The position numbers and the translations under genes are program-made. A stretch of 64,000 nucleotides of DNA, taken from NCBI GenBank assembly GCA_018822885.1, contig JAHJJA010000047.1, positions 5,384-69,383 on the forward strand, in the 5' to 3' direction. This document shows, in pieces, positions 16,291-16,735 of the stretch. How positions within the stretch are numbered: position 1 is the first letter of the stretch; every line of letters starts with the position of its first letter. This DNA is from Candidatus Omnitrophota bacterium. GTDB lineage: Bacteria > Omnitrophota > Gorgyraeia > Gygaellales > Profunditerraquicolaceae. The notes beneath the pieces are model-generated. The model did not search any database. It was given only the letters and a program-made list of their open reading frames with translations, and was not told where the DNA came from.

Positions 16291-16400
16291 TTGAAACCAA
16301 TTGTTCTTTATCAAAATTAGGGTATAATCAGCAATAGCGAATGAAATTTTAGAGGCGAAGCCAAGGGACTGTTATAAGATTTCGCTAAGGAAAATAAATT

Positions 16401-16735
16401 CGCGGGGTGGAGCAGCCTGGTAGCTCGCAAGGCTCAATGTCTCGCCTATACATGTATGGGCGTACGATGGGCTATTCAGCCGGTAACGGCTGAAGGATAG
16501 TCGGTCAAATTCGGTGAAGCCCGAAAGGGTAATACCGAGCCAAGCCTGCGCAGTTTTGCTTTGCAAAACGAAGCAGCACAGGAAGGTGTAGAGACTAAAC
16601 GGCCGAGACCCTTCTTAAGGAAGGGCCAAGATATAGTCCAGACTACGAATTTGCCAGAGTAGCGGCAAAGCGGCGAAAGCCGAAGTAGTATGCATAACCT
16701 TGAGGTCATGCGTTCAAATCGCATCCCCGCAACCA
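16401..16735 (+). tRNA. Initiator tRNA-fMet (CAT) interrupted by a group I intron in the anticodon loop
   Basis: Exon 1 (16401-16434) is CGCGGGGTGGAGCAGCCTGGTAGCTCGCAAGGCT, with C1 mispaired against A72, A11:U24 and the D arm of bacterial initiator tRNA. Exon 2 (16693-16735) supplies CATAA, CCTTG, AGGTC, the T arm ATGCG-TTCAAAT-CGCAT, CCCCGCA, discriminator A and CCA. Mature loop would be CUCAUAA. Confidence 0.8.
16435..16692 (+). ncRNA. Group I intron (IC3-like), 258 nt, no ORF
   Basis: It follows exon U33 and ends in G. It contains P7-P8-P7'-like AGACTAAACGGCC...CCCTTCTTAAGGAAGGG...GGCCAAGATATAGTCC. It also contains GTCAAATTCGGTGAAGCC, CCGAGCCAAGC and GAAGGTGTAGAGACTA, which I recognise from the Azoarcus tRNA-Ile and cyanobacterial tRNA introns. 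Many GNRA-type hairpins are present. Confidence 0.7.

Follow-up and report, generated by a model that had tools for sequence, protein, structure and literature searches.

The window (i.e., the whole 64,000-nt stretch of DNA that was analyzed) very probably carries an Omnitrophota initiator tRNA gene (tRNA-fMet) that is split between U33 and C34 by a 258-nt ORF-less group I intron belonging to the classical "tRNA-fMet 33/34" family. This family is that of the Synechocystis intron encoding I-Ssp6803I. The core of this identification is supported by a covariance-model match, by intron-aware tRNA detection, by covariation within the intron family, and by uninterrupted orthologues of the gene.

The 5' exon (positions 16401 to 16434, + strand) reads CGCGGGGTGGAGCAGCCTGGTAGCTCGCAAGGCT and comprises the acceptor 5' strand, the D arm, the anticodon-stem 5' strand, C32, and U33. 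The 3' exon (16693 to 16735, + strand) reads CATAACCTTGAGGTCATGCGTTCAAATCGCATCCCCGCAACCA and comprises the anticodon CAU, A37, A38, the anticodon-stem 3' strand, the variable loop, the T arm, the acceptor 3' strand, A73, and an encoded CCA. When joined, the exons form a 77-nt cloverleaf that was identified as tRNA-Met(cat) by ARAGORN and that exhibits a C1xA72 mismatch, an A11:U24 pair, the anticodon loop CUCAUAA, and the encoded CCA. A first-pass annotation of the same DNA had placed the two pieces of an initiator tRNA at these positions and had pointed out the C1xA72 mispair and A11:U24; the positions were confirmed to the base, and both features are present in the ARAGORN cloverleaf. Applied in its intron mode to the unspliced DNA, ARAGORN returned the same boundaries, reporting tRNA-Met(cat) with "i(35,258)" (i.e., a 258-nt intron starting at position 35). 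This position corresponds to the site after U33 because the D loop has one extra nucleotide (17a). U33|C34 is also the sole boundary that combines U at position -1 with G at omega. Thus, the insertion lies exactly between nucleotides 33 and 34 of tRNA-fMet. The split gene was missed by ARAGORN in its default mode, which called only four other tRNAs in the 64-kb window, and by the Rfam tRNA model searched over the whole window.

In a scan of metagenome contigs, the ligated junction GCTCGCAAGGCT|CATAACCTTGAGGTCATGCG was found uninterrupted in 40 contigs. At least 18 of them match the predicted spliced product over the entire tRNA gene (77/77), and the 5' exon of the window has the same sequence as the 5' part of these uninterrupted orthologues. 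The orthologues therefore fix the exon boundaries without any assumption about an intron. Uninterrupted contigs with flanking sequence exhibit the synteny FtsH-enolase-DivIC-tRNA...GH94, with enolase identities of approximately 80 to 83%. The corresponding order in the window is an FtsH-like protease, enolase, DivIC/FtsB, the tRNA, a small lipoprotein, and a GH94 phosphorylase, and the window enolase shares 83% identity with its counterpart in "Candidatus Omnitrophica bacterium UBA6233." These flanking genes place the window in the Omnitrophota, and the "Bacillus-synteny lineage" proposed in the first-pass annotation is not retained. Twelve metagenome-assembled genomes (MAGs) labelled Omnitrophota and a few labelled Planctomycetales share the order enolase-DivIC-interrupted tRNA-fMet; both GCA_018824265.1 and run SRR2540949 contain the same DNA as the window. 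Some close relatives have the intron and others lack it, as is expected of spread by homing followed by loss. Upstream of the tRNA, at a distance of 73 nt, there is a perfect TATAAT hexamer (16323 to 16328, + strand), which on sequence grounds alone is a possible -10 element. A consensus scan around the gene returned no full + strand sigma-70 promoter and no intrinsic terminator.

Bacterial initiator tRNAs are marked by the C1xA72 mismatch, A11:U24, G30:C40, and G31:C39, and three consecutive G:C pairs in the anticodon stem are typical of them. The anticodon stem of the joined exons is 5 bp long (CAAGG/CCUUG), its strands are complementary at all five positions, and it contains two of the three initiator G:C pairs (i.e., G30:C40 and G31:C39), with A29:U41 replacing G29:C41. 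A stem with two G:C pairs is atypical for an initiator tRNA, yet it also occurs in the uninterrupted orthologues and in other Omnitrophota and Patescibacteria copies. Given this incomplete set of G:C pairs and a CAU anticodon that is common to three tRNA species, the host gene might be an elongator tRNA-Met or a tRNA-Ile2 (CAU modified to lysidine). For an Omnitrophota gene, the alternative software call entered in the supplementary table of PMC13011429 is indeed "Ile2 (CAT)," and tFind is reported to call such genes of Omnitrophota and Bacteroidota "Ile2." However, the entry in PMC13011429 assigns the Omnitrophota homologue to fMet by its best intron-less match, and the initiator determinants C1xA72, A11:U24, G30:C40, and G31:C39 are all present in the window gene, so we consider an elongator or Ile2 identity very improbable. 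The host gene of the intron is an initiator tRNA with the anticodon CAU.

The intron spans positions 16435 to 16692 on the + strand (258 nt), starts with CAAUGU, and ends with the omega-G at 16692. The first-pass annotation had described a 258-nt group I intron with a U33/C34 splice site, U at -1, and an omega-G, and it had named the Rfam group I model as a suitable check. That model (RF00028, Intron_gpI) matches positions 16438 to 16657 and, at 58.0 bits, exceeds its gathering score of 50 (E = 4e-12 when the whole window is searched, 3.4e-14 when the search is confined to the region), and this match at tRNA-fMet is the only group I match in the 64 kb. Together with the ARAGORN boundaries, the covariation described below, and the 77/77 orthologues, the match bears out the earlier description. 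The score lies just 8 bits over the gathering score; RF00028 is a model without bacterial seed sequences (10.1101/2020.01.27.920355).

A P1-to-P9 structure of the intron was drawn by hand, and every pair was checked with a script; the model contains no non-standard pairs. RNAfold predicted a free energy of -104 kcal/mol for positions 16427 to 16700 (z = -5.6), and none of 200 shuffled sequences folded as well. Given only the sequence, RNAfold recovered P1, the P1 extension, P2, P3, P4, P5, P6, P6a, P6b, P8, P9, P9a, and P9b of the hand model. All of the elements described in the following are on the + strand.

The 5' strand of P1 (16431 to 16440) consists of the exon sequence GGCU, the splice site, and the intron sequence CAAUGU, and its 3' strand is the internal guide sequence ACGAUGGGCU (16464 to 16473); both strands are found in the hand model and the RNAfold structure. 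At the splice site, U16434 (tRNA U33) forms a wobble pair with G16470, and P1 includes one AxA mismatch. As read from the sequence, the AUG at 16467 to 16469 may form a 3-bp P10 with the CAU of the 3' exon (16693 to 16695). The hand model and RNAfold also agree on a 20-nt hairpin extension in the P1 loop (CGCCUAUA/UAUGGGCG; 16443 to 16462) and on the P2 hairpin (UUCAGCCG/CGGCUGAA; 16475 to 16494), which is closed by a GUAA (GNRA) loop. The site of the P1-loop extension is where relatives have their endonuclease ORF.

In the core, covariation identifies the 5' strand of P3 (UCGGUC; 16501 to 16506), the partner of which is at 16601 to 16606, and J3/4, between P3 and P4, reads AAU. P4 (16511 to 16516/16533 to 16538) and P5 with its GAAA loop (16519 to 16522/16527 to 16530) are supported by the RF00028 match, the hand model, covariation, and RNAfold. 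P6 (16539 to 16540/16586 to 16587), P6a (16545 to 16548/16579 to 16582), and the lineage-specific P6b (16553 to 16559/16563 to 16569) follow in the hand model and in the RNAfold structure. The 5' strand of P7 (GACUA; 16593 to 16597), identified by covariation, pairs with 16634 to 16638 and forms a pseudoknot with P3; by analogy, the guanosine-binding pair is probably G16593:C16638 within this helix. The 3' strand of P3 (GGCCGA; 16601 to 16606; hand model and covariation) is followed by the P8 hairpin CCCUUC/GAAGGG (16609 to 16614/16620 to 16625, spanning 16609 to 16625; hand model and RNAfold) and then by J8/7, CCAAGAUA, and the P7 3' strand UAGUC, which together occupy 16626 to 16638 (RF00028 match, hand model, and covariation). 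The P7/P8/P7' arrangement sketched in the first-pass annotation is therefore present, except that the GGCCGA at 16601 to 16606 is the P3 3' strand pairing with UCGGUC at 16501 to 16506 and is not part of P8. Toward the 3' end, P9 (ACUAC/GUAGU; 16642 to 16646/16685 to 16689, spanning 16642 to 16689) encloses P9a (16650 to 16655/16664 to 16669) and P9b (16671 to 16674/16679 to 16682), the latter with a conserved GAAA loop; these three helices are found in the hand model and by RNAfold.

For a comparison across the family, 36 non-redundant ORF-less introns (the window copy and 35 others, including cyanobacterial ones) were aligned with MAFFT, and pairs were counted on this alignment for the structure of the window copy. 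The paired cells amounted to 87.3%, compared with 73.0% in shuffled alignments (none of 500 shuffles reached the observed value), and sliding the 3' partners by 1 to 3 columns as a control left 30 to 43% of cells paired. Changes on both sides were observed in 52 of the 77 pairs, and the U33·G wobble occurs in all 36 introns. P3 and P7 were paired in 99.5% and 100% of cells, respectively, with compensation in five of the six P3 pairs and a UA/AU swap in P7 that divides the sequences 18 versus 16. P4/P5 (92%), P6 (100%), and P6a (91%; 4/4 pairs covarying) were similarly well paired, and P8 was paired in 75% of cells with covariation in all six pairs. Among the peripheral helices, P2 (90.5%; 8/8 pairs), P9a (82%; 6/6), and P9b (99%; 4/4) covary throughout, and P9 was paired in 89% of cells. 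The P1 extension and P6b showed low pairing because lineage-specific insertions in these places defeat the MAFFT alignment; their values are not counter-evidence, and RNAfold supports both elements in the window copy.

The U·G wobble, the omega-G, J3/4, J8/7, and the P7 sequence of the window copy match invariant or near-invariant columns of the alignment. The intron contains the strings GTCAAATTCGG, CCGAGCCAAGC, GAAGGTGTAGAGACTA, and AAGATATAGTCC, which the first-pass annotation had quoted, and most or all bases of each are likewise invariant or near-invariant. Alignment had also been proposed there as the means of defining P1 to P9, and the 36 homologous introns resolve the core with strong covariation. 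The conserved core P3 to P8, with its P3/P7 pseudoknot, is thus supported by covariation. On the basis of the covariation and pairing statistics, selection maintains the group I fold in this family, and the window copy is one of its structurally intact members.

These results bear on whether the gene is alive. The intron might be a decayed, splicing-incompetent relic in a pseudogene, with a second intact tRNA-fMet serving initiation elsewhere in the genome: the endonuclease gene has been lost from the window copy, 64 kb of the genome is in view, and relatives have uninterrupted alleles. Against such decay, all of the core helices are intact and the model holds no non-standard pair, the wobble, omega-G, J3/4, J8/7, and P7 all agree with the invariant or near-invariant columns, both exons are identical to those of functional-looking orthologues, and the gene occupies the conserved enolase-DivIC position at which relatives keep tRNA-fMet. 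Given the intact core and the identity of the exons to their counterparts in the orthologues, we regard a dead intron in a pseudogene as unlikely.

To find relatives with the same interruption, we scanned one genome per species for a tRNA-fMet 3' half preceded by G in place of U33. Since G replaces the normal U33, this query finds any G-ending intron at the 33/34 site whatever its sequence, and the terminal G of the scanned relatives is true by construction, as it was required by the search pattern. The scan returned at least 119 loci. A locus was counted as split when a tRNA-fMet 5' half ending in ...CU was located 191 to 997 nt upstream and the anticodon-stem strands were complementary. By this definition, the same U33|C34 interruption is present in at least 87 species-level genomes (87 of the 119 listed loci); approximately 30 of the 119 were left out of the counts, as they had no 5' half nearby, and some of these are at contig ends. 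According to the record titles, the hosts represent about a dozen phyla (i.e., Nitrospirota, Acidobacteriota, Omnitrophota, Patescibacteria, Pseudomonadota, Methylomirabilota, Eremiobacterota, Elusimicrobiota, Chloroflexota, Planctomycetota, Bacillota, Cyanobacteriota, and Melainabacteria), and at least 12 species among the split loci are labelled Omnitrophota. RF00028 passed the gathering score in 13 of the 19 loci tested, including two cyanobacterial loci and one from Melainabacteria, and the homologous loci L017, L040, L108, and L119 scored below the threshold. The first-pass annotation had considered an intron at this place to be unusual for the lineage. This view does not hold given the at least 87 species genomes in about a dozen phyla and the at least 12 Omnitrophota species, nor does it agree with the literature, in which fMet 33/34 is a classical type (10.1101/2020.01.27.920355) and an Omnitrophota entry is present in the PMC13011429 table.

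The same scan provides a measure of whether unrelated tRNA fragments (e.g., an att-site duplicate of the 3' half that an integrative element left behind) could flank a free-standing ribozyme-like sequence by chance. Lone tRNA-fMet 3' parts starting exactly at C34 do exist: approximately 30 of the 119 listed genome loci have no 5' half nearby, and the three matches obtained from a scan of viral contigs are all tRNA-fMet 3' parts that lack both the 5' half and an intron. The viral-contig scan yielded no evidence of a phage vector. In the window, however, the 5' half is located exactly 258 nt upstream, the anticodon-stem strands are complementary at 5/5 positions, the guide sequence pairs with both exon ends, and the same arrangement recurs in at least 87 species. 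This recurrence and the guide pairing effectively exclude a chance juxtaposition of fragments.

Among the matches listed, the introns fall into distinct size classes. Fifty-six introns of 191 to 379 nt have no ORF. The class of 624 to 660 nt contains 22 introns, 20 of which have an intact ORF of 109 to 178 amino acids (most of them 147 to 178) that starts in the P1 loop; the PD-(D/E)XK ORFs of the relatives are 147 to 178 amino acids long. Three introns of 981 to 997 nt carry LAGLIDADG ORFs (226 to 248 amino acids). The ORFs tested, those of L034 and L087, are homologues of I-Ssp6803I, as indicated by matches to PDB 2OST (E = 2.6e-65 and 1.9e-47, respectively) and to Pfam PF11645; 2OST is I-Ssp6803I itself, the homing endonuclease encoded by the tRNA-fMet intron that was described from Synechocystis in 1994.

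The nearest introns to the window copy by blastn (69 to 71% identical) are L045, L076, L087, and L047, all in Omnitrophota tRNA-fMet genes. L045 and L076 are 70 to 71% identical to it, and the endonuclease-bearing L047 and L087 are approximately 69% identical. In the ORF-less Omnitrophota introns L017, L045, and L076, the opening sequence is still ATGGAYACNAA (M-D-T-K), the start of the endonuclease. This remnant start shows that the endonuclease gene was lost by deletion from these introns. The window copy has no M-D-T-K remnant, and an endonuclease gene is absent from it, as no + strand ORF of at least 60 amino acids occurs within 16435 to 16692. Because there is no endonuclease ORF, the window intron is not autonomously mobile by homing. 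Most likely, it descends from an endonuclease-carrying mobile ancestor whose endonuclease gene was later lost.

The closest well-known counterpart is the tRNA-fMet intron of Synechocystis sp. PCC 6803, which is described as a 655-nt intron encoding I-Ssp6803I in the passages on it in PMC1995217 and PMC11622646; in its passage, the latter cites Biniszkiewicz et al. 1994 and Bonocora & Shub 2001. The window intron shares with it the host gene (i.e., the initiator tRNA), the anticodon-loop site, which is named fMet.2Ug by Williams and 33/34 in PMC13011429, and the group I core; representatives L063 and L088, as well as L072 from Melainabacteria, were used for this cyanobacterial comparison. Like Synechocystis, the Omnitrophota introns L047 and L087 encode clear homologues of I-Ssp6803I. 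Unlike the Synechocystis intron, the window copy is 258 nt long, has no endonuclease ORF, carries only the 20-nt hairpin in its P1 loop, and resides in an Omnitrophota host rather than a cyanobacterium.

In the survey by Williams, which reported 5292 split tRNA genes across phyla, fMet.2Ug denotes an insertion that follows loop nucleotide 2 and has U at -1 and G at omega. It belongs to the four classical types of bacterial tRNA intron, every one of them IC3 (10.1101/2020.01.27.920355). The 33/34 position in tRNA-fMet was also called a common and well-characterised site (PMC13011429, mSystems 2026), and the supplementary table of that study lists an fMet 33/34 IC3 intron of 252 nt in GCF_004102945.1, an Omnitrophota genome. 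The type of the window intron would accordingly belong to IC3, a subgroup that we take over from 10.1101/2020.01.27.920355 and the PMC13011429 supplementary table. By its table entry, the GCF_004102945.1 intron resembles the window copy in phylum, tRNA, site, and approximate length and is also without an endonuclease-sized insert. It belongs to another species.

The Azoarcus intron presumably shares the core strings GUCAAAUUCGG, CCGAGCCAAGC, and GAAGGUGUAGAGACUA with the window copy. These strings are also conserved within the 36-intron alignment. Found in tRNA-Ile(CAU) of Azoarcus sp. BH72, this IC3 intron of 205 nt is a model ribozyme (PMC13168695), and the window copy is likewise a compact group I intron of a tRNA anticodon loop. 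The two differ in that the Azoarcus intron is inserted after U36 (Ile2.5Ug; Williams 2020), not U33, of a different tRNA. In addition, P7 and J8/7 of the window copy read GACUA...AAGAUAUAGUC, its P1 has a hairpin extension, and a three-way junction joins its P9 to the enclosed P9a and P9b. The kind, the site, and the host phylum of the window intron are thus already on record, and it is an ordinary member of a classical family.

From these sequence features, we infer self-splicing of the window copy by the usual two-step transesterification, initiated by guanosine. The pre-tRNA would fold so that the guide sequence at 16464 to 16473 pairs with exon GGCU and intron CAAUGU to form P1, and an exogenous guanosine bound in P7 would attack the bond after U33. 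The omega-G at 16692 would then take over the guanosine's site, with the CAU of the 3' exon and the AUG of the guide forming P10. The 3'-OH of U33 would next attack the bond after G16692, yielding the ligated ...GGCU|CAUAACC... and releasing the intron. RNase P and 3' trimming would finish the tRNA, whose CCA end is already encoded.

The first-pass annotation had made translation initiation dependent on self-splicing, a claim that a 64-kb window does not support. One may further suppose that the genome has no other initiator tRNA gene, that all initiation is ribozyme-dependent, and that the intron has been retained after the loss of its endonuclease because it benefits the host. We consider this proposal improbable. 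If true, an example of such a benefit would be a link between the initiator tRNA supply and either the guanosine nucleotide pool or temperature and Mg2+, as opposed to neutral persistence of the intron.

The current understanding of group I introns and of translation initiation is unchanged by these data, and their main value is practical. Because default annotation misses the split gene, in both ARAGORN and the Rfam tRNA model, this MAG and many genomes of Omnitrophota, Nitrospirota, Acidobacteriota, and Patescibacteria would appear to be without an initiator tRNA. Additionally, the homing cycle is visible at one conserved locus in one phylum, with stages that comprise the empty site, an intron with an I-Ssp6803I-type endonuclease, introns with remnants of the endonuclease start, and the clean ORF-less intron of the window copy.

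The anticodon stem of the window initiator tRNA (16427-16431 paired with 16698-16702) departs from the bacterial norm at the sequence level. Three consecutive G:C pairs in this stem are normally taken as a hallmark of bacterial initiator tRNAs; the window tRNA-fMet has two of the three, because A29:U41 replaces G29:C41. Sequence comparison showed that the A29:U41 stem is common to uninterrupted Omnitrophota orthologues, and similar stems (i.e., CCAGG, TCAGG, and TTAGG) occur in several Patescibacteria copies. The loci listed together with the window for an atypical anticodon stem are L028, L040, L047, L064, L076, L087, and L110. A 110-nt spacer (16291-16400) separates the DivIC stop codon from the tRNA gene. 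Within it, a perfect TATAAT lies at 16323-16328, followed by an inverted repeat with imperfect arms (AGCGAA...TTTCGCT) at about 16337-16387. Since neither a full promoter nor a terminator was called in this spacer, the tRNA-fMet may be cotranscribed with the upstream enolase and DivIC genes or be driven by its own promoter.

Three IMG/VR viral contigs (L122, L123, and L124) carry the 3' part of tRNA-fMet alone, beginning exactly at C34 (G/CATAACC...CCCCGCAACCA). About 30 genome loci among the matches listed (e.g., L021, L026, L027, L049, and L066) likewise carry only the 3' part from C34, and neither a 5' half nor a group I intron was found near any of these viral or genomic stretches. Some of the stretches are located at contig ends. 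They are probably att sites for phages or integrative elements whose target is the tRNA-fMet anticodon loop.

The introns inserted between U33 and C34 are of more than one kind. Five introns of Terriglobia/Acidobacteriota metagenome-assembled genomes (L013, L018, L023, L092, and L104; 238 to 260 nt) represent a second, distinct lineage at this site and are excluded from the family alignment. Their 5' ends read CATAACC, which duplicates the initial 7 nt of the 3' exon, and their 3' ends read TGAGTCAGATCG. The two of the five that were tested narrowly exceeded the Rfam group I gathering score of 50 bits (L013, 52.5 bits; L018, 51.3 bits).

In many of the 624- to 660-nt introns (L012, L014, L034, L039, L067, L081, L087, and others), the endonuclease open reading frame (ORF) extends 25 to 30 codons past the I-Ssp6803I end and enters the ribozyme core (e.g., the segment ...PVKFGEA... 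is translated from the P3/J3/4/P4 sequence CCTGTCAAATTCGGGGAAGCC); thus, coding sequence and catalytic RNA overlap. Four ORF-less introns (L017, L045, L076, and L116) retain, within their first 40 nt, the start of an I-Ssp6803I-type endonuclease gene in the P1 loop (ATGGAYACNAA, encoding M-D-T-K). The remnant is longer in L076 (MDTKLKADI), and in L017 and L045 it forms a P1 extension hairpin (GGACAC...GTGTCC). These remnants document that the endonuclease gene was lost through an internal deletion.

In three further 33/34 introns (L108, L109, and L119; 981 to 997 nt), the ORF belongs to the LAGLIDADG_2 family (Pfam E values, 2.7e-10 for L108 and 3.5e-17 for L119) rather than to the PD-(D/E)XK endonucleases. 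L108 and L109 have almost the same ORF, and the near-identity of these two loci across their labels ("Clostridia" and "Acidobacteriota," respectively) suggests a binning error or a recent transfer. With LAGLIDADG_2 in place of PD-(D/E)XK, a single intron site is therefore armed with two unrelated endonuclease families.
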